From: Acutalibacteraceae bacterium
GTDB taxonomy: Bacteria > Bacillota > Clostridia > Oscillospirales > Acutalibacteraceae
Direction: 5' to 3'
Assembly: GCA_045629785.1 (NCBI GenBank)
Contig: JAZQRX010000012.1
Span: 22,135 to 86,134, forward strand
DNA: 64,000 bases
Shown here: piece by piece, positions 8,697 through 63,326 of the stretch
Layout of the letters: every line of letters begins with the position of its first letter
Numbering within the stretch: position 1 is the stretch's first letter
Translations under genes and position numbers: made by a program
The notes under the pieces: model-generated
The model's input: the letters and a program-made list of their open reading frames with translations, nothing else
Databases searched by the model: none
What the model was told of the DNA's origin: nothing

Positions 8697-11126
8697 ATGA
8701 ATCTTCGCGATTATATAAAGGATAATTTAATAATTCTTGACGGTGGTACAGGTACCATTCTTCAGGCAAACGGCCTTAAATCAGGTGAGTTACCCGAAAG
8801 GTGGAATATTACTCACCCTGATGTGATAACTGACCTTCATAAGGCTTATTTTGATGCAGGCAGTAATGTTGTAAATGCCAATACCTTTGGTGCAAATATA
8901 CTCAAGTTCAGTAAAAATGAGCTTGAAGAAATTGTTGCGTCGGCTATGAATAACCTGAAAGCCGCACGTGAAATCAGTTCAGGTACTCAACCAAAATGGA
9001 TTGGCTTTGATATAGGCCCGACAGGTAAAATGCTCAAGCCCTATGGTGAGCTTGATTTTGAAGATGCCGTTAACGTTTTTGCCGAAAGTGTAAAGCTTGG
9101 TGTTAAATATGGGGCAGAGCTTTTCTTTATTGAAACAATGAATGATAGCCTTGAAACAAAGGCGGCACTTCTTGCAGTAAAGGAAAATTCAGATTTACCC
9201 GTTTTTGTTTCAAACGCTTATGGTGAAGACGGTAAGCTTATGACAGGTGCCGACCCATCTGCTATGATTGCCCTTTTAGAGGGTATGGGTGCCGATGCTA
9301 TCGGTGTAAACTGTTCTTTAGGCCCGAAGGCACTTACCCCCATTGTTGAAAAGTACCTTGAGCTTTCATCAACTCCCGTTATACTTAAGCCCAACGCAGG
9401 GCTTCCCAAGGTTGTTGACGGCAAAACAGTATTTGATGTTTTACCCGACGAGTTTTCTGCAGACGTTTATAACCTTGTGCTTAAAGGTGTCAGAGCGGTG
9501 GGTGGCTGCTGTGGTACAACACCCGACTATATTAAAGCGGTAAAATCAAAGGTTGATGGCTTTAATGTTCAACCTATAACAGCTAAAAATATTACTTGTG
9601 TTTCTTCGTATTCACACTGCGTTTCCTTCGGTGATAAGCCTGTTTTAATTGGTGAAAGAATTAACCCCACAGGCAAAAAGAAATTTAAAGAAGCACTTAA
9701 AAATAATGATATTGACTATATTTTAAAAGAGGGTATTGCCCAGCAGGAAAAGGGCGTTCATATCCTTGATGTTAATGTAGGTCTGCCCGAAATTGACGAG
9801 GCTTCAATGCTTACCACCGCAGTATGCGAGTTGCAGGCGGTTACTGATTTACCCTTGCAGATTGATACCTCTGACCCCGTTGCTATGGAAAGTGCTTTGC
9901 GCAGATATAACGGTAAGGCTATGCTTAACTCTGTAAACGGCAAAGAGGAGTCTATGAAAGCGGTTTTCCCCCTTGCAAAAAAGTATGGCGGTCTTATTGT
10001 TGCACTTACCCTTGATGAAAACGGAATCCCCGAAACTGCCGAGGGCAGGGTGGCTATTGCAAACAAAATTCTTGATACCGCAAAAGAATATGGTATAAGC
10101 AAAAAAGATATTATCTTTGACCCCCTTGCACTTACTATTAGTGCTGATAAAAACGCAGGCAAGGAAACACTCAAGGCAGTTAATATAATTAAAAATGAAT
10201 TAGGTTGTCACACCTCACTTGGTGTTTCAAACGTTTCGTTTGGTCTGCCTAACCGTGAAATTATAAACAGTAATTTCTTTACACTTGCCTTGTGGCAAGG
10301 TCTTTCAGGGGCTATAATGAACCCTTATTCTGACGAAATGCTTAAATCTTATTATGCGTATTGCGCTTTGAATGGTCTTGACGATAATTGTGCAGAATAT
10401 GTTTCATTTACCGAAACTCTGCCACAGACAGTAACAACTACACAGGTTGTAACAACATCTACCCAAAAGGAAGAAACTGCAACAGGCCTCAAAAGAGCGG
10501 TTATAAAGGGACTTAAGGAACAGGCGGCAACTTTAACGGATGAGCTTTTAAAGAGCCGAGAGCCCCTTGATATCGTCCGTAATGAGATTATTCCTGCCCT
10601 TGACGAGGTGGGTATAGGCTTTGAGAATAAAACCGTATATCTTCCACAGCTTCTTATGAGTGCCGAGGCGGCAAAAAGTTCATTTGAATGTATAAAAAAA
10701 GCCGTAGGTACAAATAAATCTGCAGATAAATGCAGTTTCGTCATAGCTACAGTAAAAGGTGATATTCACGATATCGGTAAAAATATTGTTAAATTGCTTC
10801 TTGAAAACTACGGCTTTGACGTACACGATTTAGGTAAAGACGTACCGCCTGAAGCGGTTGTTGATAAGGTCTGTGAGCTTAACGCTCCCTTGGTAGGCTT
10901 AAGCGCACTTATGACAACCACAGTACCTGCTATGGAAGAAACCATCAAGCTCCTTCGTGCAAAAGCACCTTGGTGCAAGGTTGTAGTCGGTGGTGCAGTA
11001 CTTACACAAGAGTATGCCGACTCCATCGGCGCAGATAAATATGCAAAAGATGCTATGGAGACGGTAAGATACGCAGAAATGCAAAATGCAGAATGCAGAA
11101 TTAAAGGGCGCAAGCGCGGATTATAA
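8697..11126 (+). CDS. metH: cobalamin-dependent methionine synthase, short form lacking the AdoMet reactivation domain
   Basis: Homocysteine S-methyltransferase domain (GGCCGTTPDYI), a pterin-binding domain, and a B12-binding domain with DIHDIGKNIV and GLSALMTTT. The protein ends right after the B12 domain. Confidence 0.85.
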   Translation: MNLRDYIKDNLIILDGGTGTILQANGLKSGELPERWNITHPDVITDLHKAYFDAGSNVVNANTFGANILKFSKNELEEIVASAMNNLKAAREISSGTQPKWIGFDIGPTGKMLKPYGELDFEDAVNVFAESVKLGVKYGAELFFIETMNDSLETKAALLAVKENSDLPVFVSNAYGEDGKLMTGADPSAMIALLEGMGADAIGVNCSLGPKALTPIVEKYLELSSTPVILKPNAGLPKVVDGKTVFDVLPDEFSADVYNLVLKGVRAVGGCCGTTPDYIKAVKSKVDGFNVQPITAKNITCVSSYSHCVSFGDKPVLIGERINPTGKKKFKEALKNNDIDYILKEGIAQQEKGVHILDVNVGLPEIDEASMLTTAVCELQAVTDLPLQIDTSDPVAMESALRRYNGKAMLNSVNGKEESMKAVFPLAKKYGGLIVALTLDENGIPETAEGRVAIANKILDTAKEYGISKKDIIFDPLALTISADKNAGKETLKAVNIIKNELGCHTSLGVSNVSFGLPNREIINSNFFTLALWQGLSGAIMNPYSDEMLKSYYAYCALNGLDDNCAEYVSFTETLPQTVTTTQVVTTSTQKEETATGLKRAVIKGLKEQAATLTDELLKSREPLDIVRNEIIPALDEVGIGFENKTVYLPQLLMSAEAAKSSFECIKKAVGTNKSADKCSFVIATVKGDIHDIGKNIVKLLLENYGFDVHDLGKDVPPEAVVDKVCELNAPLVGLSALMTTTVPAMEETIKLLRAKAPWCKVVVGGAVLTQEYADSIGADKYAKDAMETVRYAEMQNAECRIKGRKRGL

Positions 11127-11135
11127 TGCTGTCGC
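11092..11135 (+). repeat. left arm of long inverted repeat bounding the metH/GH36 intergenic repeat island
   Basis: AATGCAGAATTAAAGG...GCAA...ATTATAATGCTGTCGC. Its reverse complement recurs at 11891-11934. The arm overlaps the last 11 codons and the stop of metH. Confidence 0.75.
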
Positions 11136-11150
11136 AAAATTTGTAGTTGT

Positions 11151-11215
11151 GCGAAGCCTTACCTCCCTAAGCCTAGGGAGGGGGACCTCGCCTTTGGCGT
11201 GGTGGTGGGTAGTTC
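11151..11215 (+). repeat. two-hairpin repeat unit A, copy 1
   Basis: GCGAAGCCTTACCTCCCTaagccTAGGGAGGGGGACCTCGCCtttGGCGTGGTGGTGGGTAGTTC. A second copy lies at 44840-44906. Confidence 0.8.
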
Positions 11216-11259
11216 TTTTACTGCTTTTCTTCACTTAAATAGAATAATAGATTTGCTGT

Positions 11260-11295
11260 GTGGTCTACCTCTCTGGTTTAAGAGAGGGGGACCAC
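11260..11295 (+). repeat. hairpin repeat unit B, copy 1
   Basis: GTGGTC-TA-CCTCTCT-ggttta-AGAGAGG-GG-GACCAC. Also present inverted at 11627-11664 and 11826-11859. Confidence 0.85.
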
Positions 11296-11365
11296 CTTTT
11301 TGTCAAGTTGTTGCTTAATTTATTTTTCAAGCGTGTGATTACTTTCGTATAAATGGAAAGCTTGT

Positions 11366-11557
11366 CGGGTGGTGGAGAGTTCCCGATGCGGCAGCATCGT
11401 GGAAACGAAGTTTCCATTGGAATTTACTGAATGGATATATCATTTATTTACGAACAATAAATATAATGTTTCATGTTTCATTTTTATAGACATTCAGTAT
11501 ATTACAGTTGAATCTCACGATTCAAAACGCTGGCGCGTTGGAACTCTCCACCGCCCG
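11366..11557. mobile_element. 192-bp MITE-like element with 18-bp terminal inverted repeats and AT-rich centre
   Basis: CGGGTGGTGGAGAGTTCC (11366-11383) matches the reverse complement of GGAACTCTCCACCGCCCG (11540-11557) at 17/18. Each end is followed inward by a short GC hairpin: CGATGC-ggca-GCATCG and AACGC-tggc-GCGTT. Confidence 0.55.
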
Positions 11558-11626
11558 TCGGACTGTATTTTAAACATCTAATATTCACTCGTTTGCTACT
11601 TGATTTGTATAATAAAATAAATGTAA

Positions 11627-11664
11627 GGCGGTCCCCCTCTCTTAAACCAGAGAGGTAGACCGCC
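11627..11664 (-). repeat. hairpin repeat unit B, copy 2 (inverted)
   Basis: GGCGGTCCCCCTCTCTTAAACCAGAGAGGTAGACCGCC. The outer stem differs from copy 1 by a compensatory pair: GCGGTC/GACCGC versus GTGGTC/GACCAC. Confidence 0.85.
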
Positions 11665-11825
11665 AATATGTTTTTTATCGCTTGAAAGCTTGTTGTATAG
11701 GCAAGTAACGTTAAGCCCTCTTGTGGTACCCAAAATTGTTTGCTCGTTGTTCACTTCGCACAATTTTGACCACTGCGCCAACTCACACTCCCTGTATCGC
11801 CCACAGGGCGCGGTCGTGTTCCTTG

Positions 11826-11859
11826 CCCCCCTCTCTTAAACCAGAGAGGTAGACCACAC
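11826..11859 (-). repeat. hairpin repeat unit B, copy 3 (inverted, one outer half-stem lost)
   Basis: CCCCCCTCTCTTAAACCAGAGAGGTAGACCACAC. Confidence 0.8.
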
Positions 11860-11890
11860 AGTAAGTTTTTGTTCTGTTTTAGTTGAATTT

Positions 11891-11934
11891 AGCGATAGCA
11901 TCATAATGCGTTGCAGATCCTTTAATTCTGCATT
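11891..11934 (-). repeat. right arm of long inverted repeat bounding the repeat island
   Basis: The reverse complement reads AATGCAGAATTAAAGGATCTGCAACGCATTATGATGCTATCGC and ends 1 nt before the GH36-like stop codon. Confidence 0.75.
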
Positions 11935-11935
11935 T

Positions 11936-14056
11936 TTATTCCGCTTCGTACAACACCAACTCCGACTCCATAGCCGAGCCTAAATAAACCTCTATACCTT
12001 TGCTTAACTCAAAGCCTGACACAGTAAATGTACAACCCTCATTATCGAGTGTAACGCTATAATTCTTGCTTCGGTCAATTCCTTTAGGCTTAACAACAAT
12101 GCTTTGTTCGCTTGTATTACACATAGTAAATACTGTTATAGCACCCTTTGATTTATCGGGTGCACCGATTTCTAGCACACAAACTTCCGCATCATATAAT
12201 TCGGGGGTGTGGTGGTAAATTACAGAGTCACTTAAGAATGTTCTTATGAAATTCTTGTAAATATCAGTGCTGTGCTTTACAAAAGCCATAGCCTCACCAT
12301 TTACTTCAGCACCCTCGGGTGAAATAACGTTGAGTGAGATGTGACCCAACATAGTATTCCTAAGGTGTGCTTTGAATGAGCCTATTGTGTGGCAACCCAT
12401 ACCTGCAAAAAGTCTGTCAACTCTTTCAGGGGGTAAAGCCATTGTCATTCCGTTGGTGATTGCAACAGAGTATGGCATTTTCTGATTATCTGAAACCCAG
12501 GTGTGGTTGAAATTCTTCATCATACCAAGGTCAGTTCTGCCACCGCCACCTGCACAGTTTTCAAATATAACGTGAGGGTACTTCTCTTTAAGTCGGTTAT
12601 ACATATCGTAAACCGCCTTGTTGTGCCTTAATGTCACACATTCCTTTATACCACAGCCTGTGTCACGCATACTGAAATACTCGGTGTAATCCACGTTATA
12701 GTCGACCCTCAAAAGATCTAATTCATATTCCTCAATAACCCTTGAAAGCTCGTTTTCTGCCCATTCGTTTACTTCAGGGATTGACATATCGATAAGTCTC
12801 GGATTCTTTGTGCCGAAAACGTTGTCAGACCTGAAATCAGGCCTTTCGTCAAATAAAGGACACAGCCTTCCTATGTTTTCTATATCCATCCACAAGCCGA
12901 ATTTAAGCCCCTTTTCGTGGGCGTAATCGCGTATTTCCTTGATGCCATTGGGGTATCGGTTTTCATCGGGGGTATTCAAGCCGTTATAATCACCCCAGCT
13001 TGTTTCTTCGTGGGGTGGGCAAACCCAACCTGCATCCACAATAAATACCTCGCCACCCATTTCTGCAAACTGGTCAATAAATGCTTTGCTTCCGATGATG
13101 TCCATATTGTGCTCTGCACCCATACCGCAACCAATAAGGGCAGGGGTGGGGTCTGCAAATTTATTGTTGAGTACACTTTTTCTTGTGTGGTAGTGCATTT
13201 CATTTATTGCACAATCAAGGTCACCGTGCACCATACCTATATGTACTTCGGGTGTGGTGAATTCTTCAAATGGTTTTAACACAAGAATAGGTGAGTGCCC
13301 TGTGATTTCTGCCTTGAATGAAAGGTGAGTTTCATCTTTAAAAGGTTTGGCGTTGTAGTCAATTGAAAAGCGGTAACCACCGCTGTAGCCAATCTGACAA
13401 AACCATATATGCCCCAAAACGTTGTTTTTTAAAAATACAATAGGGTGACGGAATCTGTCGCGCAAGAATCTGCCGTCAATGGCGGTTGTGTCGGGGTTAA
13501 GGCTTCTCCAACGGAATTGACCTTCACGACCCCATGAGTCATCGTCAAAATAACCTAAGGAGTAAAGGGCAGATTTATCGCTTGCGCCTTTAAGGTGGTC
13601 TGTATCCATATCCTCAAAGCCACCGCTTATGAGTGCAAGTTTGTTTACACATAAGGGCTTATCTGAAAGGTTCTTTATTTCAAGCCAACGGCTGAACATC
13701 TGTGAGCCGTCAAGGAGTGTGCACACAGTAATTTCAACGGGCTTTATATTGCTTTTCAGCGTAAGTCTGCAAAGCGAAGCGTTATCTGTTTCTTCCTTTT
13801 CAAATGAAACAAAATCAAGGTCATAGCTTACACTTTGCCCATCAATTTCAAGATTAAACGCAAAAGGCTCCGTATAACGCCTTGTGTCAAGCCTTGATGG
13901 GAAGTTTGTAAGCACGTCGAGTGGGTAACCCGAAGCATTCCAGCCACAAGGCATAAGAGCGCCTTTGTCAAAGCGCTCTTCATAAACTAAATCTTTACTT
14001 CTGTAACAAAATGTTTTTTTGCGTTCATTATAATATATATCAAAAAAACTGTTCAT
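11936..14056 (-). CDS. glycoside hydrolase, GH36-like (alpha-galactosidase family), no signal peptide
   Basis: Motifs FIVDAGW, GLWMDIENIG, LLRVDYNVDY and ENCAGGGGRTD resemble GH36 catalytic-domain blocks. Start placed at MNSFFDIYY (ATG 14056, GAGG RBS) because the longer ORF would overlap lepA by over 200 nt. Confidence 0.65.
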   Translation of the reverse strand: MNSFFDIYYNERKKTFCYRSKDLVYEERFDKGALMPCGWNASGYPLDVLTNFPSRLDTRRYTEPFAFNLEIDGQSVSYDLDFVSFEKEETDNASLCRLTLKSNIKPVEITVCTLLDGSQMFSRWLEIKNLSDKPLCVNKLALISGGFEDMDTDHLKGASDKSALYSLGYFDDDSWGREGQFRWRSLNPDTTAIDGRFLRDRFRHPIVFLKNNVLGHIWFCQIGYSGGYRFSIDYNAKPFKDETHLSFKAEITGHSPILVLKPFEEFTTPEVHIGMVHGDLDCAINEMHYHTRKSVLNNKFADPTPALIGCGMGAEHNMDIIGSKAFIDQFAEMGGEVFIVDAGWVCPPHEETSWGDYNGLNTPDENRYPNGIKEIRDYAHEKGLKFGLWMDIENIGRLCPLFDERPDFRSDNVFGTKNPRLIDMSIPEVNEWAENELSRVIEEYELDLLRVDYNVDYTEYFSMRDTGCGIKECVTLRHNKAVYDMYNRLKEKYPHVIFENCAGGGGRTDLGMMKNFNHTWVSDNQKMPYSVAITNGMTMALPPERVDRLFAGMGCHTIGSFKAHLRNTMLGHISLNVISPEGAEVNGEAMAFVKHSTDIYKNFIRTFLSDSVIYHHTPELYDAEVCVLEIGAPDKSKGAITVFTMCNTSEQSIVVKPKGIDRSKNYSVTLDNEGCTFTVSGFELSKGIEVYLGSAMESELVLYEAE

Positions 14057-41272: not shown

Positions 41273-42646
41273 ATGGAGCTGAAAATCAACCCTAAAAAAG
41301 AATATCAGACCTTCAAGAGCATTGGCGCAAGCGGTGCTTGGTGGGCGCAGATTGTTGGTGGCTGGAGTCATATTGACCCACAATCGGGCAAGCCTGTCCG
41401 CGATAGAATTGCAGAGCTATTATATAACAAAGAAACAGGCATTGGTATGGGTGTATACCGCTACAATATCGGTGGTGGCTCCAAGCATTCGGGCAAGGGT
41501 GAATACAGTCAGCCTGCACGTGCTACAGAGTGCTTTGAAACAGCCCCCGGTGAATATGACTGGAACCGTGACAAAAACGCAGTTTATATGATGAAAAAGT
41601 GCGTTGAAAATGGTGCTGACGAAGTAATATTCTTTGTTAATTCACCTATTGAAAGGCTTACTAAAAACGGACTTGCCCATAACAAAAAGTATCAGCTTTT
41701 TCACGAGAATATCAGTAAGAAAAATTACAAGGAATTTGCAAAATACTGCCTTGATGTTACCGAGCATTTTGTTGGTGAGGGTATGCCGATAAAATACCTT
41801 TCACCTGTCAATGAGCCTATATGGGTGTGGAATGGTGGTCAGGAGGGCTGCTTTTACCGCCCTCGTAGTGTAAAAAATGTTTTTAAGGTTTTTGCCGAAG
41901 AAATTGATAAGCGTGATTCCCTCAAAAACATAAAGCTTTCGGGTGCAGAATCAGGTGATTTGCGTTGGTTTAACAAGTCCTACACCCGACAGCTCCTTAA
42001 GGATAAAAACGTACGTGATCACCTTGATGGTGTAGACGTTCACTCCTATTGTCTGCCTTTGCCGTTACCCATAACCATTCCGTTTCTTAACGACAGATTA
42101 GGCTTTGTAAAGCGTTTTCGTAAGTTTATGGATAAAAAATATCCCGATGTGCCCATTATAATGAGCGAATGGACTCATATGCAGGGTGGCAGAGATTATG
42201 GTATGGATTCTGCCCTTGTTACCGCCAAAACAATGTACGAGGATTTTACACTCCTTAATGCGGTTTCGTGGCAGCATTGGATTGCCGTTTCTGAGGTGGA
42301 TTATTGCGACGGACTTATTTACATAAATCTTGACGAAAAAACCTTTGAAATTACCAAAAGATATTATGTGACAGGTAACTATTCAAAGTATGTAACGCCC
42401 GGCTCAAAGCGTATCGAGGCAAGCATTGATGATAACGATTTGCTTGTTACTGCATTTAAAAATAGCGATGAAATTGTTCTTGTTATTGTAAATAATTCAG
42501 AATGCGAAAAGGGGATTGTGTTACCCCGATATAATGACATTGTGCTTTCTGTTACAGATAAAGATAATAACCTTGCAGAAGCCAAAGCAATTTCAAACCA
42601 AATTAAGCTAACGCCCAAATCTGTTACAACTGTGGTGATGAAATGA
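41273..42646 (+). CDS. intracellular glycoside hydrolase, clan GH-A (GH30-like)
   Basis: IGASGAWW near the N-terminus, the acid/base-like motif SPVNEPIW and the nucleophile-like motif MSEWTH. No signal peptide. Confidence 0.5.
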   Translation: MELKINPKKEYQTFKSIGASGAWWAQIVGGWSHIDPQSGKPVRDRIAELLYNKETGIGMGVYRYNIGGGSKHSGKGEYSQPARATECFETAPGEYDWNRDKNAVYMMKKCVENGADEVIFFVNSPIERLTKNGLAHNKKYQLFHENISKKNYKEFAKYCLDVTEHFVGEGMPIKYLSPVNEPIWVWNGGQEGCFYRPRSVKNVFKVFAEEIDKRDSLKNIKLSGAESGDLRWFNKSYTRQLLKDKNVRDHLDGVDVHSYCLPLPLPITIPFLNDRLGFVKRFRKFMDKKYPDVPIIMSEWTHMQGGRDYGMDSALVTAKTMYEDFTLLNAVSWQHWIAVSEVDYCDGLIYINLDEKTFEITKRYYVTGNYSKYVTPGSKRIEASIDDNDLLVTAFKNSDEIVLVIVNNSECEKGIVLPRYNDIVLSVTDKDNNLAEAKAISNQIKLTPKSVTTVVMK

Positions 42647-44823
42647 AAAATAAAATATTAAGTATTTTGCTATCAGTCAAAAAGAATTGGAAAACTGCCC
42701 CCGATGATAGATTTATTCCTTTCAGGGAGATTGCTTCCCTTGCCGTTGGCGGTATCGGTGTTAAATTTATTGTGTATTGTGTCAGCACAATGATATTAAG
42801 CGTGGGTAACACACTTATCGGTAACACTATCGGTATACCGCCTACGTCTATTTACTTTATTTACATACTCAGCGTTATTGCAAGCTTCCCCTTGACAGGC
42901 TTAAGGGCAAAAATGATTGACAATTCAAAGAGTATGAAGGGTAAATACCGCCCATATATACTTACTATGGGCTTGCCTACAGTCCTTCTTGGTATCGGCT
43001 TTATATGGGCACCGTATGAGCTTATGTCTATGCCCGTGAAATGTATAGTTGTGTTGCTATTTAACATCGGCTTTCAGTTTTTCTATAACTTTTTGCTTGA
43101 TGCAAATGACAGCATCATAAACGTTCTTTCACCTAATTCAATTGAGCGTACAGATGTCTATGCGGTGAAGTCGGTTATTGAAAATATTTCACCCTCAATC
43201 GCAAGTATATTCCTCCCCATTGTGGCAAAGGCAATAACAGGTGATAACACACTTTATGATATGACAGTTTACAGAGTGCTCTATCCACCTATGCTTGTTG
43301 TTGGCTTCCTTGTATCAATCATCATTTACGTTAATACAGAGGAACGAATTGTTCAGCCTAAAAATCATACAGTCAGTATGAGCTTTATCGATTCTTTTCG
43401 CGCCGTTGCAAGAAATAAATATTTCTGGATAATTTCTCTCGCAGGGTGGATAGGCTTCCTTGAGGGGTCATTCGGTACCATTCTTGGCTGGATGTACAAT
43501 TATCAGGAGGTTTGCTCAGCATCACAGTATGCAATAATTACAGCTATTGTGGGTAATGCCTCATTGTGGCCCAATCTTTTTGCCCCATTCCTTATAAGGC
43601 GTTTTGGTAAAAAGAAAATACTTATTTTAAGCAACGTGCTCAATATCATATTTATTGCTCTTATGCTGCCCGTTATACGAATGAGTGGTGGCGGTGTGAT
43701 ATGGATTCTGCTTGTATTTATCTTTATAAATCAGTTGCTGACTTCCTGTGGCCATTTTATGAACCCCAGCCTTAATGCTGATATAAGGGATTATCAGCAG
43801 TACATCAGCGGTGAGCGTATTGACGGTATGTTCTCTGCAATTGGTCTTGTGGGTAGTATAATCACACTTGCAACATCATCCGTTTTACCTGCAATTTATG
43901 AAAAGGCAGGTCTTAATGCAGAAAAAGCCGTAGCCCTTGGCTACAGCGCAGATAACGTGTATGATGTGCTTTATAATACAGAGCTTTTTCAATCAATATG
44001 CTCTGTGCTTATTATAGCATCGGTTGTGGGTGCAACCCTTAACGTTATACCTTTTTTCTTCTATGACCTGACTGAAACTAAGCAAAAGGCTATGGTTCAG
44101 GTTCTTCGTATCCGAGCATATTTTGAGGATGCGCTGGGTGGAATCGCAACTAAAGAACAAGAGAGTGAATTTAACGAGCTTGTAAATACTGCGAAAGCAT
44201 TTTCAGATAAAGAAATCCGCACTATTACCAAGGGTATGAGCAAGGCGGAGAAAAAGCAGATTCGTGAAGATAACGAGCAGATAGAAATTTCAAGGATTAT
44301 TCTTAATGAGCTTAACTATTTCAATACACCTCAGGGTGAATTTGAACTAAAATATGCTCAGCAGGTTGTGTCGGGTAAGGGTGTTGATGCCTCTGCGCTC
44401 CTTGTGCAAATGAAAGCATTACCCAAAACCACCACAGAGGAAAAAGACTTCCGTAGAAAAATGATTTCTTCTGTAAAGGATTTCAAAATTGCTGAAAAAA
44501 CAGCGGCTAGTGAAAAGTTCATATCTGCCGCAGATTTTGATAGTAGCATTTTTACAGACCTTTTCAATACATCTGACAGACTAACCCTTGAAATTACAGA
44601 TGTACAAAAGAAGCTTAAATCAGCTAAAGAGTCCAAAAATGATACAAAAGCGCTTAAAGAAAAAATAGCCATTCTTCAAAAAGAACGTAATATCAATGAT
44701 TCTAAAATCAAGGATGCAAAAAAGAAACACATTCTTTACAGCCGTGCTCACAAGCCTACTCTTGATGCACGTAAGTGTATTGCAAGGTGCGAAAGCTACC
44801 GCAATTATCTGAACGTTAATTAA
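42643..44823 (+). CDS. GPH/MFS-type glycoside transporter with ~245-aa hydrophilic Lys/Glu-rich C-terminal extension
   Basis: About 12 hydrophobic segments in the first ~480 aa, then a charged tail that is helical-looking. The start overlaps the hydrolase stop (ATGA). Confidence 0.7.
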   Translation: MKNKILSILLSVKKNWKTAPDDRFIPFREIASLAVGGIGVKFIVYCVSTMILSVGNTLIGNTIGIPPTSIYFIYILSVIASFPLTGLRAKMIDNSKSMKGKYRPYILTMGLPTVLLGIGFIWAPYELMSMPVKCIVVLLFNIGFQFFYNFLLDANDSIINVLSPNSIERTDVYAVKSVIENISPSIASIFLPIVAKAITGDNTLYDMTVYRVLYPPMLVVGFLVSIIIYVNTEERIVQPKNHTVSMSFIDSFRAVARNKYFWIISLAGWIGFLEGSFGTILGWMYNYQEVCSASQYAIITAIVGNASLWPNLFAPFLIRRFGKKKILILSNVLNIIFIALMLPVIRMSGGGVIWILLVFIFINQLLTSCGHFMNPSLNADIRDYQQYISGERIDGMFSAIGLVGSIITLATSSVLPAIYEKAGLNAEKAVALGYSADNVYDVLYNTELFQSICSVLIIASVVGATLNVIPFFFYDLTETKQKAMVQVLRIRAYFEDALGGIATKEQESEFNELVNTAKAFSDKEIRTITKGMSKAEKKQIREDNEQIEISRIILNELNYFNTPQGEFELKYAQQVVSGKGVDASALLVQMKALPKTTTEEKDFRRKMISSVKDFKIAEKTAASEKFISAADFDSSIFTDLFNTSDRLTLEITDVQKKLKSAKESKNDTKALKEKIAILQKERNINDSKIKDAKKKHILYSRAHKPTLDARKCIARCESYRNYLNVN

Positions 44824-44839: not shown

Positions 44840-44906
44840 GCGAAGCCTTACCTCCCTGACCATAGGGAGTGGGACCGTTGCCTTTAGCAACGGTGGTGGG
44901 TAGTTC
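44840..44906 (+). repeat. two-hairpin repeat unit A, copy 2
   Basis: GCGAAGCCTTACCTCCCTgaccatAGGGAGTGGGACCGTTGCctttaGCAACGGTGGTGGGTAGTTCC. The flanks match copy 1 at 11151-11215, and the second stem is rewritten with pairing preserved. Confidence 0.8.
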
Positions 44907-49582: not shown

Positions 49583-49657
49583 GCCTCCATAGTTAAATGG
49601 ATATAATAAACCCCTCCTAAGGGTTAGTTATAGGTTCGATTCCTATTGGGGGTGCCA
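49583..49657 (+). tRNA. tRNA-Arg (anticodon CCU)
   Basis: Hand-folded cloverleaf. The 7-bp acceptor stem GCCTCCA/TGGGGGT has two G-U pairs. The D-loop contains GG. The anticodon stem is AACCC/GGGTT with loop CTCCTAA, the T-arm is ATAGG-TTCGATT-CCTAT, and the CCA end is encoded. Confidence 0.85.
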
Positions 49658-56944: not shown

Positions 56945-57032
56945 TTTTTAATTAAAAATTTTGGAACGCTACGCGTAGATTATAATTAACCTACCATAAT
57001 AAACGCATTTATGGGTTTAAATAGATTAACAA

Positions 57033-57990
57033 AAAAACACGCTCTTTTTTGTTAATTGTGCCATTTTGAAATAATTGAATGTTCTGTAAAATTATGTTAA
57101 TATGATTTTATAGAATTTATACGGAGATGGTTTTATGAAAAAATCCATAAGCTTAATTTTAGCAATAATAATGCTTTTCAGCGTTGTTAATGTAAGCGTA
57201 TTTGCGGCAGGTGTTGCCACACCAAAGGCAACTGCATCTAACGATGTAGGTGGCATAAAGGTGTATTGGAATAAGGTCGATGGTGCTGTAAAATACGAGG
57301 TTTACCGCAGAGTTGGTGGCTCAAGCTCCTGGGACTATGTAAACACAACCACAGGCACAAAAATCATTGATAAGGGTGTTTCTAACGGCAAATACTATGC
57401 CTATTCTGTCCGTGCGTATAACTCACAAGGCGGATATAGTGCTTATAACCAAAGTATGACATACACAACCAAATGTGTTGCTACACCTAAGCTCACAAGC
57501 CTTGTAAATGATACAAACGGTCTCAAGCTTACTTGGGGTGCAGTTTCAGGTGCAAGCTATCGTGTATATCGTCGCGGTGCAGGGTCAACAAGCTGGACAT
57601 ACCTCGGCACAACAAACAGCACAACCTTTACAGATTCCAAAGCTGCAAGTGGCAAGTATTGGCGATATACTGTCAGAGCTGTCAGTAGTGGTTACTATAG
57701 TGGTTTTGACACAAACGGACTTTACACTATGCGCCTTGCTAATCCCTATTCTATCAAGGCAGTAGTGGTTCAAAACGGTGTGCAGGTAAATTGGGCAAAA
57801 ATCAATGGTGCTACTGGTTACAGAGTGTACCGCCGTGGCGCTGGTCAGTCCTCCTGGACATATCTTGGTGCCGTATCAACAAATAGATTTATTGATACAA
57901 AAGTATCACAGAATGCATATTACAGATACACTGTAAGAGCAACAAATGGTGGAGCTATAAGTTCTTTCTATAGTGAGGGCTATGTTATCT
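57033..57990 (+). repeat. duplicated block, copy 1: promoter, 5' UTR, signal peptide and three Fn3-like modules
   Basis: Paralogous to 58795-59765. 57045-57134 versus 58809-58898 is 88/90 identical by manual alignment; the coding part is visibly more diverged. Confidence 0.85.
57075..57103 (+). promoter_or_regulatory. candidate promoter of the first Fn3 paralog
   Basis: TTGAAT, 17-nt spacer, TGtTAATAT. The same arrangement occurs at 58839-58867, with TTGAAC as the -35. Confidence 0.45.
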
Positions 57991-58721
57991 GCACCAGCTT
58001 GAAGAATGAGTTGATTAACAATTTATGGAAGTATTCTGATTACACGTATGTATTTTTCTCTGATGGGTCAGGTATGATACTTGGTGGTTCTCTCACAGAA
58101 CTGTTTTCTTACTCGCTCTATGGTAATAAAATAACAATGATGTATGAAGATGGAACTACAGTTGTTCGATACTTGATAACAAAAAATAGTAGCAATATCT
58201 GGACTAACAATTCCTATTTTGTTAATAATTATGCACCATATATTTCGGGCGATGAGTATATCATTGCGGAAGAAGATGGATATACTGTTTTAGTGAAAGG
58301 CGATTCTAAAACTGCCAAAGCAGAAATAGCATACTATAAAGTGTGGCGCCAATGTCTTTATAACTGGTATGGTAATAAAAACATCAAGGAATATGCACTC
58401 CACGATATAAATGAAGATGGTATACCGGAATTTATAATACATGGTGGCTCTTGTGAGGCTGACAGATACTATTATTTCTATACATATAGTGGTGGTAAAG
58501 CAGTGTATATGGGCTCTATGTCTGCAAGTCATTCGGGAATAGCAGATGCTAAGGGTTATATAATTCTTTTTGGCGGACATATGGGTTATGGTAGGTCCAG
58601 TGAACTGTATATGGTTAATAACAAAATAGTTGCTAAAAACAGTAAAACGTTTGACTTTAATTATACACCATTCCCTGATTTTGGACCGCGTGTCGAGTTT
58701 GTTGTTGATAATAACTATTAA
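57135..58721 (+). CDS. secreted protein: signal peptide, three Fn3-like modules and a unique C-terminal domain
   Basis: Signal peptide MKKSISLILAIIMLFSVVNVSVFA. Three ~85-aa modules follow the pattern G(I/L)K(V/L)xWxxVxGAxxYxVYRRxxGSSxW...YxYxVRA. Confidence 0.8.
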   Translation: MKKSISLILAIIMLFSVVNVSVFAAGVATPKATASNDVGGIKVYWNKVDGAVKYEVYRRVGGSSSWDYVNTTTGTKIIDKGVSNGKYYAYSVRAYNSQGGYSAYNQSMTYTTKCVATPKLTSLVNDTNGLKLTWGAVSGASYRVYRRGAGSTSWTYLGTTNSTTFTDSKAASGKYWRYTVRAVSSGYYSGFDTNGLYTMRLANPYSIKAVVVQNGVQVNWAKINGATGYRVYRRGAGQSSWTYLGAVSTNRFIDTKVSQNAYYRYTVRATNGGAISSFYSEGYVICTSLKNELINNLWKYSDYTYVFFSDGSGMILGGSLTELFSYSLYGNKITMMYEDGTTVVRYLITKNSSNIWTNNSYFVNNYAPYISGDEYIIAEEDGYTVLVKGDSKTAKAEIAYYKVWRQCLYNWYGNKNIKEYALHDINEDGIPEFIIHGGSCEADRYYYFYTYSGGKAVYMGSMSASHSGIADAKGYIILFGGHMGYGRSSELYMVNNKIVAKNSKTFDFNYTPFPDFGPRVEFVVDNNY

Positions 58722-58752
58722 GATATTTATTGTTTGGTTTTATACTGATTTA

Positions 58753-58788
58753 AAAGCCATTCTCTCAAATGAAGAGAGTGGCTTTCTT
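58753..58788 (+). terminator. terminator after the first Fn3 paralog
   Basis: AAAGCCATTCTCTC-aaatgaa-GAGAGTGGCTTT (one bulge) followed by CTT. Confidence 0.6.
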
Positions 58789-58794
58789 ATGCAC

Positions 58795-59765
58795 AAAAAC
58801 ACAGTTGATTTTTTGTTAATTGTGCCATTTTGAAATAATTGAACATTCTGTAAAATTATGTTAATATGATTTTATAGAATTTATACGGAGATGGTTTTAT
58901 GAAAAAATCCATAAGCTTAGTTTTAGCAATAATAATGCTTTTCAGCGTTGTTAATGTGAGTGTGTTTGCGGCAAGAGTTGCAACACCCAAGGCTACCTCA
59001 TCCAACGATGTTGGTGGCATTAAGGTGTATTGGAATAAGGTTAATGGTGCAGTGAAGTATAACGTTTACCGCAGGGTAGGTGGCTCAAGCAGTTGGGTGC
59101 TTGCAGGTACTACAACCGGCACACAAGTGATTGATAAAGGTGTCGCTAACGGTAAATATTATGTTTATTCTGTTCGTGCGTATAATGCTCAGGGTAGCTA
59201 CAGCGCGTATAATCAGAATATGACATACACAACCAAGTGTGTTGCCACACCCAAGCTTACAAGCCTTACTAATGACACAAACGGCCTTAAGCTTACCTGG
59301 AGTGCAGTTTCAGGAGCAACCTATCGTGTTTACAGACGCGGTGCAGGCTCCACAACATGGACATACCTCGGCACAACAAGCATCACAACTTATACAGATT
59401 CAAAGGCATCAAGTGGTGCATACTGGCGCTATACTGTGCGTGCCGTTAGCAGTGGTTATTACAGTGGCTTTGACACCAACGGCCTTTATATAATGCGCTT
59501 AGCAAATCCTTATTCCATCAAGGCAAGTCAGGTTCAGGGTGGTGTAAATGTAACCTGGGCAAAAATCAATGGTGCTACAGGCTACAGAGTTTACCGCCGT
59601 GGTGCAGGTTCTTCAAATTGGACATACCTTGGCGCAACAACTACAAACAGTTTCAAAGATACAAAAATAGCTTATGGGGAAAACTACTATCGCTACACAG
59701 TAAGGGCAACACGTGGTAATATTTACAGTGGTTTTTATACCGATGGTGCGGTTGTGAAAGCATCA
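58795..59765 (+). repeat. duplicated block, copy 2
   Basis: See 57033-57990. Confidence 0.85.
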
Positions 59766-60518
59766 AAAGTCAGAGCAACCTTCTCTTCAGAAATCGGTGC
59801 GGTTAATGGAACTGTATATAGTGCTCGACACATCGGTCACAAAAAAGACAGTGATGGGACTTGGGGTAAAACCGCGAATTCAAAAATCCCTGTTTTACCT
59901 GTATATAAACCCAACAAAAACTTGCTTGTCGCCAGCTTCTGTTATTACGACGGCTATATTTATTATACATTGAGTCAAGATTGCTCTGGTGGGTTTGATG
60001 TTTGGTTGTATAGATGTAATCTTGATTTCACTAACACAAAATTGCTTGCTTTTTCTGATGGTTCAGATGATGATTGGGAGAATGATTTCAACAGATATTT
60101 TTATATTTACGAAAACAAGTTGTACCTTGGTTGGAGTAATAGTAGTGAAAATTTCTGCATCAATCTCTCAACATTAAATATGACTAAAGAAAAGTCTGTG
60201 GATTTTTATTCAATATATAATGTTGACAAAAATAATGTTAGTGAATTCGGTCAACTGGAAATATACAATGACAATGTTTTTTATTCGGATGATTTCGGAG
60301 AAGCAAATATATATTTAATTAAGAACTCTAAAAGACAATTAATTATGCAAAAGGCTGAGTTAGATGGCGGTTATGTTAACGGATGTATTTATTATAGTCG
60401 CTATAATTATAACAATGGCAACGGACAGCTTTGGCGAAAAAATCTCAGCACCGGAAAAACAGAGTTTTTAGATGAAAAGCCAACCGCTGGTGGCGGCGGA
60501 TTATACTTTAATTGGTAA
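58899..60518 (+). CDS. secreted protein: signal peptide, three Fn3-like modules and a DUF5050-like repeat C-terminal domain
   Basis: The N-terminal ~290 aa are paralogous to the previous gene. The C-terminal part has recurrent (I/L)YY and NxxxxxxIYY beta-propeller-like repeats. Confidence 0.8.
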   Translation: MKKSISLVLAIIMLFSVVNVSVFAARVATPKATSSNDVGGIKVYWNKVNGAVKYNVYRRVGGSSSWVLAGTTTGTQVIDKGVANGKYYVYSVRAYNAQGSYSAYNQNMTYTTKCVATPKLTSLTNDTNGLKLTWSAVSGATYRVYRRGAGSTTWTYLGTTSITTYTDSKASSGAYWRYTVRAVSSGYYSGFDTNGLYIMRLANPYSIKASQVQGGVNVTWAKINGATGYRVYRRGAGSSNWTYLGATTTNSFKDTKIAYGENYYRYTVRATRGNIYSGFYTDGAVVKASKVRATFSSEIGAVNGTVYSARHIGHKKDSDGTWGKTANSKIPVLPVYKPNKNLLVASFCYYDGYIYYTLSQDCSGGFDVWLYRCNLDFTNTKLLAFSDGSDDDWENDFNRYFYIYENKLYLGWSNSSENFCINLSTLNMTKEKSVDFYSIYNVDKNNVSEFGQLEIYNDNVFYSDDFGEANIYLIKNSKRQLIMQKAELDGGYVNGCIYYSRYNYNNGNGQLWRKNLSTGKTEFLDEKPTAGGGGLYFNW

Positions 60519-60673
60519 GTGTATTCAGATATCTTCAAAACTTATATATATAGCAATCATTAAAATATCCTTTTACCAACTATTCCAAGATGCTATAATA
60601 TTATTGATTAGAGCACTTTCGTTCTGAGCATCTTCTGATGTGCTTATATAACTTTTCGGTCTGTTAAACAACA

Positions 60674-60706
60674 AATCACTCTGCATTTTGCAGGGTGATT
60701 TTTTTG
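60674..60706 (+). terminator. rho-independent terminator about 160 nt downstream of the preceding stop
   Basis: AATCACTCTGC-atttt-GCAGGGTGATT (one wobble pair) followed by T7. Confidence 0.75.
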
Positions 60707-60834
60707 TGACTTAATATTTTCTCTGTTAGGGTGAAAAATTGAATATTTGAAGCAATATTTTGATATAGATAAAGTTCAATGTTTTGTGCTCAAAATAAGA
60801 ACCTTACCACAAAAATCAACCGCTTATTTTGTAA

Positions 60835-60863
60835 TTGACATTTATATAAAATAATTTTATAAT
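60835..60863 (+). promoter_or_regulatory. sigma-A-type promoter of the LRR/Fn3 gene
   Basis: TTGACA (60835-60840), 17-nt spacer, TATAAT (60858-60863). Confidence 0.65.
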
Positions 60864-60902
60864 ATAAGGTAATTTATTATATTATTATGCGGTGGTGATT
60901 TT

Positions 60903-63326
60903 ATGAAGAAAAAAGCTTTATCAATCCTTTTAGCTATCTTTATAATTTTTACAACAATGTCGGCGCTTGCTGTGTCCGCAAGTGCTGCAGCATACACCGG
61001 TACTGTTACAGGTGTTATGAAAGATACATCAGACCCTGATAATACCACAGTCAACTGGAGCTTTTCGTATAACCGATATGAGGGTACTGCAACACTTACC
61101 CTCAGCGGTACAGGTTATATGCCTAATGCCCTTTATGAGGATTCATGGCTTCCTGCTCAGTATGCAGTGCAGTGTTACATAACCAAGCTCATTGTTAAAG
61201 ACGGCGTCAAAAGCATTATGGAAAATGCCTTTATGGGTGAAGTTTACCTCAGAGAGGTTTCTTTGCCTGATTCAATTGAGTATATCGGTGAAGGTGCATT
61301 TGCATATACCTCAATTAAGCAGATGTATATTCCCCAAAAGGTTGATTACGTCAATGCACGTATGTTTGTGGGCTCGCCCATAACAAACTATACTGTTTCG
61401 GCATATAATCAGTACTATAAAAGCAGCGGCGGTTTCATTTATTCAAAAGATATGACCGAGCTCGTTGTTGCCCCCGCAGGTAAGTGGGTTGACAATGCTA
61501 ATTATTCATATACAATCCCTTCAACTGTTAATACTATTATGCCATATGCCTTTATGGGTGTTAACATTAACAGTATCACCATTCCCTCAAACGTCAAAAC
61601 AATCAAACAGATGGCGTTTATGTCGTCTGCCTTGAGCAGAGTGTATTTCCGTAATGGTATCGAAATGCTCTATGACAGCGTTTTTATTGATTGCCCTAAG
61701 CTTACCTTTGTACATATTCCTTCATCATTAAAATATATGGGTTCATATACCTTCGGGTATAATTATGAAATAGACTATGCCTCAATCCGCAGGGTGCTTA
61801 ACGAAGAAGGGATATCCTACGGCTCATTGAATGAGGATAACGTTGAGGGTTATCTTGAGCAGGCAGGCTACACAATCGACCAATTCTATATTCCCTATGT
61901 AAATAAATCATTCCAGATTTTTGCACCTGATAATTCTGCGGCTTCAAAATATGCTAAAAATAACGGAATGAAGTATATAAAAAGCCAGGCGCTTACTCCG
62001 TCTATATCAAGTGTAACATCTTCAGATGGCGGTATGCTTGTTAAGTGGACAAATTCAAGCGATGCAACAGGCTATTACCTTTACCGCAAAAACACGAGTG
62101 GTACATGGGAGCGTATTGCTGTTCTGCGTGGCGCAGCAAATACATCTTACATTGATGCCAATGCCTATGCAGGTAAAACAAATACATATACAGTAAGGGC
62201 ATATAACTCCACCGGTCAGAGTTATTGTTATCAGACGGGCGTTTCAGCGGTTTACGTGCCGAGCACAAAGCTTTTGTCAATTGGTAATAACGTTGGCGGT
62301 ATCCGTATAAACTGGTCAAGGCAAAGCGGTGTTTCCAACTATATTATTTACCGCAAATTCGCAGGTCAGGGTTCATGGCACCAAATTGCTAAGGTTTCAG
62401 GCTATGTTTCTTCTTACCTTGATAAAACAGTAAGCTCCAATACTCGTTATTCATATACAGTAAAGGCTGTTGTCGGTAGTGCAAGCGGTGCGTATAATCA
62501 ATCCGGTCTTACCGAAACCTATGTAAGCGCACCAACTGTCAGCGTTTATAATATAACAAACGGTGTTGCCATTAAATGGTCGCACAGTTCTTATGCAGAT
62601 AACTTCCGTATTTACCGCAAAACAAACGGCGGTAGCTGGCAGCTTATTAAAATCGCAAATAGTAATGATACTGTTTATTATGATAAAGCAGTTACTCGCG
62701 GTACATCTTATACATACACAGTAAGGGCAAGCTACAAAAATGTACTCAGTAGCTATGACCCTGCAGGTAAGGCTATTATTTCTATTGATGCACCTTTAAC
62801 CATAAAGGCTGAAAACAGAGTTTCAGGCGCATTGGTTAGCTGGAATAAATGTTCAGGTGCACAGGGCTACTACGTATATCGTAAAACTTCAGGTGGTAGC
62901 TGGGTGCGTATCGCAACTGTTTCGGGTATTAACAACCTGCAGTATCTTGATACAAAGGCTCAAAGCGGTACAACCTACTATTACACAGTAAGGGCGTATA
63001 ATGGCTCAGCTCTTTCAACATATGATACAGCAGGTAAATCACTTCTATTCTTGTATACACCCCGATTAGTATCGGCTGAAAGCACCCGTGATGGTGTTGT
63101 TATAAATTACACCAAATCTGCAAATTGTGATGGTTACTACATTTATCGCAAAACCCCTGGCTCAGGTTGGGTCAGAATAAAGCACGTGTATGGTGCAAAT
63201 AACGTGTCTTTTACAGATACTCGTGCTGAAAAGGGTACAACGTACATTTACACAGTCAAAGCATTTAAAGGCTCGGCTATGAGTGGTTATTTTGCTAATG
63301 GCATTGAGATTAAGGATAAATATTAA
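60903..63326 (+). CDS. secreted protein: BspA-type leucine-rich repeat domain followed by ~5-6 Fn3-like modules
   Basis: Signal peptide ending AVSASA. LRR_5-like repeats (IxxxAFxxCxxLxxVxIPxSV). The YRK...W...YTVRA module pattern recurs in five full modules plus a diverged one, so about five to six copies in my reading. Confidence 0.8.
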   Translation: MKKKALSILLAIFIIFTTMSALAVSASAAAYTGTVTGVMKDTSDPDNTTVNWSFSYNRYEGTATLTLSGTGYMPNALYEDSWLPAQYAVQCYITKLIVKDGVKSIMENAFMGEVYLREVSLPDSIEYIGEGAFAYTSIKQMYIPQKVDYVNARMFVGSPITNYTVSAYNQYYKSSGGFIYSKDMTELVVAPAGKWVDNANYSYTIPSTVNTIMPYAFMGVNINSITIPSNVKTIKQMAFMSSALSRVYFRNGIEMLYDSVFIDCPKLTFVHIPSSLKYMGSYTFGYNYEIDYASIRRVLNEEGISYGSLNEDNVEGYLEQAGYTIDQFYIPYVNKSFQIFAPDNSAASKYAKNNGMKYIKSQALTPSISSVTSSDGGMLVKWTNSSDATGYYLYRKNTSGTWERIAVLRGAANTSYIDANAYAGKTNTYTVRAYNSTGQSYCYQTGVSAVYVPSTKLLSIGNNVGGIRINWSRQSGVSNYIIYRKFAGQGSWHQIAKVSGYVSSYLDKTVSSNTRYSYTVKAVVGSASGAYNQSGLTETYVSAPTVSVYNITNGVAIKWSHSSYADNFRIYRKTNGGSWQLIKIANSNDTVYYDKAVTRGTSYTYTVRASYKNVLSSYDPAGKAIISIDAPLTIKAENRVSGALVSWNKCSGAQGYYVYRKTSGGSWVRIATVSGINNLQYLDTKAQSGTTYYYTVRAYNGSALSTYDTAGKSLLFLYTPRLVSAESTRDGVVINYTKSANCDGYYIYRKTPGSGWVRIKHVYGANNVSFTDTRAEKGTTYIYTVKAFKGSAMSGYFANGIEIKDKY

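Follow-up and report, generated by a model that had tools for sequence, protein, structure and literature searches.

Palindromic repeats between metH and a GH36 gene of an Acutalibacteraceae bacterium as probable gene-less derivatives of DUF559 nuclease elements

The subject of this report is a repeat-filled spacer (the island) in a 64,000-nucleotide stretch of the genome of an Acutalibacteraceae bacterium (GCA_045629785.1, contig JAZQRX010000012.1, positions 22,135 to 86,134), referred to throughout as the window, and its relation to palindromic elements that carry the gene of a DUF559 nuclease. Between metH (stop codon 11124-11126) and a convergent Melibiase/GH36 (galactosidase) gene on the minus strand (stop codon 11936-11938) lies a spacer of 809 bp (11127-11935). 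The open reading frames (ORFs) in this spacer are all at most 70 aa long, each of them crosses repeats, and a Pfam scan of the two longest gives no match, in agreement with the original prediction that no credible ORF is present between the two stop codons. The features of the region are as follows.

8697-11126, plus strand: metH, with the Pfam domains S-methyl_trans, Pterin_bind and two B12-binding domains.
11077-11098, plus strand: heptad array (AAATGCA AAATGCA GAATGCA G..), which forms the left arm's outer edge and lies within the final codons of metH.
11099-11127, plus strand: core of the left arm, with AATTAAAGG, the small hairpin GCGCAAGCGC and the palindromic ATTATAAT (11120-11127); it includes the metH stop codon.
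11128-11150, plus strand: left end of the cargo, GCTGTCGC and a leader (AAAATTTGTAGTTGT), the mirror of 11877-11899.
11151-11215, plus strand: unit A, two hairpins; P2 (CCTCCCT/AGGGAGG) lies within 11160-11187, the variable hairpin P3 at 11188-11200 and the 3' strand GGTGGTGGGTAGTTC at 11201-11215.
11216-11254, plus strand: extension of unit A; its homologue at locus L068 is the leader that extends up to the ATG of the DUF559 gene.
About 11255-11670, no strand: E400, a palindromic gene-less element of about 400 bp (16 aligned copies).
11262-11293, plus strand: hairpin B1, left end of E400, followed by a 74-nt insert.
11366-11557: inner palindrome with 18-nt terminal repeats, 94% complementary.
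11367-11383: inner repeat of E400, GGGTGGTGGAGAGTTCC, followed by two small hairpins at 11384-11416.
11417-11507: AT-rich centre of E400, in whose place loci L081 and L015 have a DUF559 gene.
11508-11539: mirror hairpins of E400, followed by the inner repeat (11540-11556) and a 77-nt insert.
11630-11661, minus strand: hairpin B2, right end of E400.
11662-11826, plus strand: spacer s4, of which the 3' 117 nt are module S (11710-11826).
11826-11855, minus strand: B3, the third B hairpin, its 3' arm fused to module S.
11856-11899, minus strand: the pre-B extension in mirror image, with the cargo's right end, GCGATAGC (11892-11899).
11900-11938, minus strand: right arm, adjoining the GH36 stop codon and composed of ATCATAAT (11900-11907), a degenerate hairpin, CCTTTAATT (11919-11927) and a single heptad.
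44840-44906, plus strand: second, solitary unit A, 16 nt past the stop of the gene at 42643-44823 and ahead of a plain terminator.

The outer arms (11092-11135 and 11891-11934) are inverted copies that agree in 38 of 47 aligned columns (about 81%), with 16 nt perfect, close to the 80% first estimated by eye. They do stand where the original prediction placed the closure of the island, but they are a recurrent module that is not peculiar to this locus, and the left arm starts within metH codons. The inverted repeat of the island that includes the region 11856-11899 has 61-nt arms, 80% complementary. The three B hairpins and the two copies of unit A previously described are all present, and the copy of unit A at 44840-44906 shows compensatory changes in hairpin 2 relative to the copy at 11151-11215. 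However, A and B are not the separate modules they were taken for but variants of one unit with the common core TACCTCYCT-N6-AGRGAGGGGGACC, a variable hairpin and GGTGGWGG; the pattern TACCTCYCT-N6-AGRGAGKGGGACC from this core has five matches in the window versus 0.00 expected (100 shuffles). Similarly, the palindrome formerly described as a 192-bp element resembling a miniature inverted-repeat transposable element (MITE) is real but not independent, being the core of the E400 bounded by B1 and B2. Unit A and each half of E400 are one kind of unit.

Loci of the family were collected by an exact-pattern scan of species-representative genomes. The core pattern occurs in at least 112 genomic loci, nearly all in gut, rumen or termite metagenome-assembled genomes (MAGs), and the hosts among the matches listed are Acutalibacteraceae, Oscillospiraceae, “Clostridia bacterium”, Christensenellaceae and Acidaminococcaceae. 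Among uncultured Clostridia of the gut and rumen (Acutalibacteraceae, Oscillospiraceae and relatives) the repeat family is widespread, and the window probably stems from an organism of this kind, since L002 and L003 are from the same MAG series. In viral contigs the core pattern has no match and the arm pattern has one, and a phage origin of the repeats is unsupported.

Each unit consists, in order, of a conserved pyrimidine-loop-purine hairpin, ACC, a free hairpin and GGT-GGWGG..TTC. The free hairpin varies from 6 to 79 nt and is found in more than 25 different self-complementary versions. From 30 of the 80 listed copies of unit A, RNAalifold calls P2 and P3 with five covarying pairs; a three-way junction (P1) is not recovered, and its pairs are invariant. 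Pairs of B(+) and B(-) that are 358-370 bp apart occur in at least 16 other loci and align over their full length as the approximately 400-bp palindrome E400, in which a B hairpin, a 74-78-nt insert, GGTGG(T)GGAGAGTTCC, two small covarying hairpins and the AT-rich centre are followed by their mirror image. Compared with the outer part of E400, the inner part can stand in either orientation. About 11 copies of E400 lie on separate contigs of a single MAG (JAGASD01), and a termite MAG has A(-)/A(+) pairs. Module S (117 nt, two hairpins whose G.U pairs favour the plus strand) is at least 95% identical in nine loci of different MAGs, a conservation above that of the surrounding repeats, and the S-B junction of B3 is also found in nine loci. 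Additionally, module S lies 3' of the gene-bearing elements in L081 and L015, and apart from E400 in L031 (897-1016) and L062 (1922-2042).

Clustering of the ORFs around the 112 loci (about 0.8 Mb) reveals one recurrent ORF, which encodes a DUF559 domain protein, and no recurrent transposase-like cluster. A cluster of 191-aa ORFs had been suspected of being read-through of B hairpins, which was rejected when Pfam gave a real DUF559 domain. The DUF559 ORF matches Pfam PF04480 (E = 3e-30), PDB entry 3hrl (4e-14), the PADLOC HEase model (1e-4) and, weakly, the homing endonuclease I-Bth0305I (3r3p, 0.025), and the motif E-x-D-G-x-x-H is invariant in these ORFs. The product is predicted to be a DUF559 Vsr-like endonuclease of the PD-(D/E)XK, EDxHD-like type.

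In five loci (L081, L015, L062, L018 and L056), a 132-aa gene with its own ribosome-binding site occupies the exact centre of an E400-type element. In L068 the DUF559 gene is placed between inverted short A units, and in L069 (Christensenellaceae) it adjoins an A unit. A comparison of L081 and L015 with the E400 of the window reveals about 200 homologous nt at each end, with the gene replacing the short AT-rich centre, and in this alignment a faint trace of the 3' end of the DUF559 gene is seen in the gene-less centre. The leader of the L068 gene, up to its ATG, aligns with window positions 11216-11250. Gene-bearing and gene-less copies coexist in the same MAGs, and the relation between them is one of paralogous or heterologous copies, not of proven orthologous alleles. 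Close homologues of the DUF559 protein (70-96% identical) are mostly found on contigs of 0.6-3 kb, as is expected for multi-copy repeats that break assemblies. DUF559 is the only protein repeatedly found exactly between units, and a complete element consists of two inverted units that enclose a DUF559 gene of about 130 aa.

The association was also examined from the side of the protein, using 80 DUF559 loci from unrelated metagenomes that are at most 52% identical and were picked by protein only. Inverted repeats hug the gene in 32 of 65 metagenomic DUF559 genes versus 1 of 151 shifted control windows (p = 6e-19), and a CYTCYYY-N3-9-RRRGARG hairpin lies within 250 nt of 42 of 68 genes versus 2 of 152 controls (p = 1e-24). 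This pyrimidine-loop-purine hairpin is located upstream of the gene, downstream of it or on both sides. Full A-like units abut the DUF559 gene in L136, L149 (two in tandem), L129, L120, L121 and L135, and in L120 and L121 the 3' strand of the unit is the Shine-Dalgarno (SD) sequence of the gene. As a separate observation, L200 (1500-2500), 5' of a DUF559 gene that numerous gut samples from pigs and humans show at a single site, contains a tandem array of half-units, tandem repeats of about 100 nt and a duplicated 5' end of the DUF559 gene, and most contigs break there.

A comparable arrangement is present around ycjD, the DUF559 gene of E. coli K-12 (L210, NC_000913.3, 7030-7840). A perfect 17-bp hairpin upstream of ycjD sequesters its SD sequence, and two inverted copies of a GC-rich palindromic repeat that end in ..GAGGGGACC and resemble unit B lie downstream, together with a duplicated fragment of the 3' end of ycjD itself. 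This palindromic repeat, which probably belongs to the “boxC” family, is found in a median of 15 places per genome across all 5426 complete E. coli genomes. No paper was found that links the repeat to ycjD, or DUF559 to repeats, and literature searches on the unit sequences, DUF559, PF04480 and ycjD/boxC yielded no prior description. The general association of DUF559 genes with hairpins is statistically strong and apparently unreported. The repeat family of the island is undescribed and belongs to no named family; in kind it falls with the dispersed, non-coding hairpin mosaics (REP, BIME, MITE) to which the modules had been likened.

Relatives of the locus were found through MetH homologues, and the metH/GH36 junction proves to differ among them. 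At 98% MetH identity (L001) the spacer measures about 800 bp and holds the same modules, partly inverted and re-joined, with another gene next to it. At 95% (L002) it measures 622 bp and has an identical 70-nt left arm and a unit A with a wholly different loop and second hairpin; beyond these come a terminator, several small ORFs and a right arm of variant type, whose heptads read AATGGCA. At 89% (L003) it is reduced to 127 bp, in which degenerate heptads flank a single perfect A-like hairpin bordered by A and T runs that resembles a bidirectional terminator, and at 83% (L117 and L118) MetH ends in ..EINKLI before its stop, a plain terminator follows and the synteny is different. The 127-bp spacer of L003 was considered as an empty site and rejected, given the degenerate heptads on both sides and the A-like hairpin that remain. 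Between L001 and L002 the 70-nt left arm is identical, whereas the loop of unit A, P3 and the cargo are wholly different, which indicates that the arms persist while the interior turns over rapidly.

In the close clade, the MetH tail (..NAECKMQN, then the stop) is encoded by the heptad array of the element. The window is one 7-nt heptad short of L001 and L002, and as a result of this loss the MetH tail is frameshifted from ..ECKMQN to ..ECRIKGRKRGL; heptad slippage has thus rewritten the C-terminus of MetH.

The arm module, which comprises AATGCAR heptads, AATTAAAGG, a small hairpin and ATTATAAT, brackets the same cargo in other genomes. Three to five heptads stand in tandem, and in other arms they read AGGAATK, AATGCGT, AAATTTA or AATGGCA; next come AATT-NNN-GG, a short hairpin whose sequence varies and the palindrome ATTATAAT, after which GCTGTCGC usually opens the cargo. 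About 20 further loci contain the left arm module, with a hairpin that covaries. Inverted arms are placed around A, E400 or both in L038 (a minimal case of 250 bp), L008, L070, L083 (doubly nested), L050, L087, L110 and L036, and the entire composite from one arm to the other is found again at sites unrelated to this one, as in L050 (84% identity over 640 nt). The sequence ATTATAAT is present at both arm/cargo junctions and only once in L049, where arm(+), one ATTATAAT and arm(-) form the single example of a candidate empty pad; a regular-expression search for more such pads found none besides L049. At the outer heptad boundaries no direct repeat or target-site duplication is seen. The inverted arms form a recurrent outer shell or, possibly, a landing pad.

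The arm sequence ATTATAAT was also considered as a -10 box and rejected, as variants break the conserved A2, no -35 box is present and the promoter scan made no call. Several further observations concern the arms. The sole viral match to the arm pattern is on an IMG/VR phage contig (L116, 3640-3730), where a stop codon, heptads and AATTAAAGG directly precede a canonical terminator hairpin, complete with T run, and a TTGACA/TATGAT promoter. Other ORFs lie as cargo between arms, namely one of 177 aa with no Pfam family in L110 (5758-6291) and ORFs of 89 aa and 32-53 aa in L002 (12618-13036). Another dispersed hairpin repeat, GTAGTGAACGCATTTATGCGTTCACTAC, is absent from the window and often lies beside arms in L008, L067, L087, L110, L113, L117 and L118.

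The interpretation that we favour, and regard as reasonably probable, is that palindromic elements with a DUF559 nuclease gave rise to the island, where their gene-less derivatives lie piled up and nested. The system would be analogous to REPIN-RAYT, in which a REP-associated tyrosine transposase mobilises REP doublets (Bertels and Rainey, PMC3116915, PMC3337134), but with a different enzyme. The window contains gene-less derivatives only, namely a solo end (unit A and its leader), an E400 with an AT-rich stub, and an extra B hairpin with module S, all of which lie between the inverted heptad-plus-hairpin arms. As an object the island itself is ordinary: non-autonomous repeats piled up in a safe spacer. 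The nuclease may be the mobilising enzyme, in which case it would be supplied in trans by a gene-bearing copy elsewhere in the genome and would recognise, and then cut, the conserved hairpin or palindrome. Dimeric binding to palindromes is typical of PD-(D/E)XK enzymes, and the T:G mismatches that Vsr recognises would be displayed by the unit in its folded form. Host repair or recombination among the many homologous copies would then copy, swap, invert and nest the modules, and a spacer between convergent genes would tolerate the pile-up. The hairpins of the island probably serve as terminators. Such a process would resemble a homing endonuclease that acts on dispersed palindromes, or REPIN-RAYT with another enzyme. 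The analysis shows directly the repeat family, its anatomy, its forms with and without the gene and the general tie of DUF559 genes to hairpins, whereas the mobilising role of the nuclease and its mode of action are inferred. Four observations agree with cut and repair: L001 and L002 have identical arms but exchanged interiors, flip-flop isomers exist, no duplications were seen, and modules nest at ATTATAAT.

The likeness to REPIN-RAYT is found in the short extragenic palindromes whose inverted doublets form long hairpins (here E400, with two half-units), in the tens of gene-less copies per genome that accumulate at gene 3' ends, and in a small single gene flanked by inverted copies of one repeat. 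However, the gene here encodes a DUF559 PD-(D/E)XK nuclease, whereas RAYT is an HUH Y1 transposase (PF01797), and no GTAG is present 5' of the stem, the unit consensus being ..YTACC-TCYCT... Additionally, each unit here comprises a pair of hairpins, of which one is free in sequence, heptad arms add a further shell on the outside, and the hosts are Clostridia and not Gammaproteobacteria. MITEs (Correia/NEMIS, RUP, bcr1) likewise have terminal inverted repeats, no ORF, a sub-kilobase length and nesting, and are related to longer gene-bearing elements through loss of the internal gene. The ends here differ in being structured two-hairpin units, no target-site duplication was found, and the same-ended partner encodes only the 132-aa DUF559 nuclease and no DDE transposase.

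A further comparison is offered by the free-standing or intron-borne EDxHD homing endonucleases, which include the Vsr-like I-Bth0305I (PMC3239194) and belong to the same clade of the nuclease superfamily as VSR/DUF559 (PMC3424549). The element gene encodes a nuclease domain of that family with the invariant E, D and H, and it is present or absent at a defined position inside otherwise conserved sequence, but it is not in an intron or intein, and its putative target is a dispersed palindromic repeat in place of a unique host gene. By description, BOX and BIME are also intergenic mosaics of short hairpin modules that vary in number and order; we know of no enzyme associated with BOX. In the IS200/IS605-derived PATE, the subterminal hairpins are direct and accompanied by TnpA/TnpB, whereas the units here are inverted, and tblastn with approximate queries found no TnpA in the window and about 0.9 Mb of loci.

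Several points weigh against the proposal that DUF559 elements gave rise to the island. The supply of the nuclease in trans is assumed for this genome, as no DUF559 gene is present in the 64-kb window or in L001-L003. No precise pair of empty and filled sites was found, L049 being the one candidate empty pad, nor was a target-site duplication. A nuclease of 130 aa is incapable of strand transfer, and mobility must rely on host functions. One DUF559 gene (P0239) is found at the same site in all 10 places listed, like a resident gene. The loci were chosen by exact pattern, mostly from MAG assemblies. Finally, the hairpin 5' of the gene sequesters its SD sequence in L120, L121 and ycjD, and part of the association between DUF559 genes and hairpins could therefore be gene regulation.

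This last point leads to a broader alternative, which we consider unlikely, that the units are regulatory parts (SD-sequestering leaders or terminators of DUF559 genes, bidirectional terminators, or mRNA stabilisers between convergent genes) that were spread by ordinary recombination and not mobilised by DUF559. Beside the SD-sequestering hairpins, it finds support in the bidirectional-terminator-like site of L003, in the heptads and AATTAAAGG directly before a true terminator in the phage contig, and in the genes downstream of units, which point toward the unit twice as often as away from it (42 versus 21). However, a terminator consensus scan of 10900-12100 gives a single terminator-like site, which lies at the 3' end of the GH36 gene outside the island (11962-11977), and no island hairpin qualified. 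The gene-less copies number tens per genome in both orientations at unrelated sites, some of them upstream of gene starts, and mirror-image units occur on both sides of the gene. Across bacterial families the unit keeps its primary sequence but P3 varies freely, which also argues against a purely regulatory origin.

A second alternative, which appears improbable, is that these are classical non-autonomous elements moved by another transposase encoded elsewhere (a DDE insertion sequence with the same termini, or a RAYT-type HUH enzyme), with DUF559 as a passenger. The terminal inverted repeats, the lack of an ORF, the multiple copies and the nesting would all be expected of such elements, and other cargo ORFs lie between arms in L110 and L002. 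However, the ORFs around the 112 copies include no recurrent transposase-like cluster, no target-site duplication is seen, and DUF559 alone is repeatedly placed exactly between units, an association that holds from the protein side as well. The same tblastn search gives no Y1/IS200-like match, which is weak evidence in view of the approximate queries.

Rfam covariance models were run on the window at the gathering threshold and on the island and gene-bearing loci at a permissive threshold, with no relevant match; the output consists of a transfer RNA (tRNA) gene elsewhere in the window and sub-threshold plant-miRNA (MITE-like hairpin) noise. The idea in the original prediction of a long structured RNA, or several small ones, with pairing ends is very improbable, for although the end-to-end fold is very stable (z = -18.6), hairpins covary and module S is highly conserved with G.U pairs on one strand, such a fold is trivially expected from nested inverted DNA repeats, the island matches none of the large or structured RNA models (ROOL, GOLLD, raiA, OLE, HEARO and others), the interior between the arms is wholly different in strains that are 95-98% related, units share the orientation of the upstream gene about as often as they oppose it (37 versus 35), a promoter scan of the island region gives no convincing promoter, and inverted DNA copies of the unit are placed on either side of a protein gene.

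Other observations in the window concern different regions. Two 300-nt direct repeats, 89% identical and 1764 nt apart, occur at 57029-59092, and a 31-nt motif occurs seven times at 57910-63262, with the last five copies about 261-267 nt apart; both probably reflect repeated domains of large surface proteins. At 2523-2699, 54-nt tandem repeats encode a Lys/Ala-rich tail (AKKAPAKKK..), which, by synteny with L001, is probably the 3' end of a trigger-factor gene. The tRNA gene at 49583-49654 is the only Rfam match in the window at the gathering threshold.

Returning to the derivation of the island from DUF559 elements, a wider proposal can be put forward tentatively, as a possibility that we rate below the reading of the island itself. 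DUF559 mini-nucleases may mark out a class of selfish palindromic elements, undescribed but widespread, that extends from rumen Clostridia to E. coli (ycjD) and in which a gene of about 130 aa hugged by inverted pyrimidine-loop-purine units spawns gene-less units and doublets. The class would be an analogue of REPIN-RAYT based on a PD-(D/E)XK enzyme and host repair, and the heptad arms would be a palindromic landing pad in whose ATTATAAT centre elements nest. The elements rewrite gene ends, as shown by the MetH tail, and break metagenome assemblies, and they could be mis-called as ORFs or RNAs in the annotation of rumen MAGs. DUF559 is a very common family with no assigned role, and its physical link to dispersed palindromes provides a testable one. 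A candidate enzyme is thereby offered for orphan intergenic repeat families without a known enzyme, possibly including the GC-rich palindromes beside ycjD in E. coli. If the nuclease drives the repeats, they would represent a second, independent route to REPIN-like populations, by cut and repair instead of HUH transposition.

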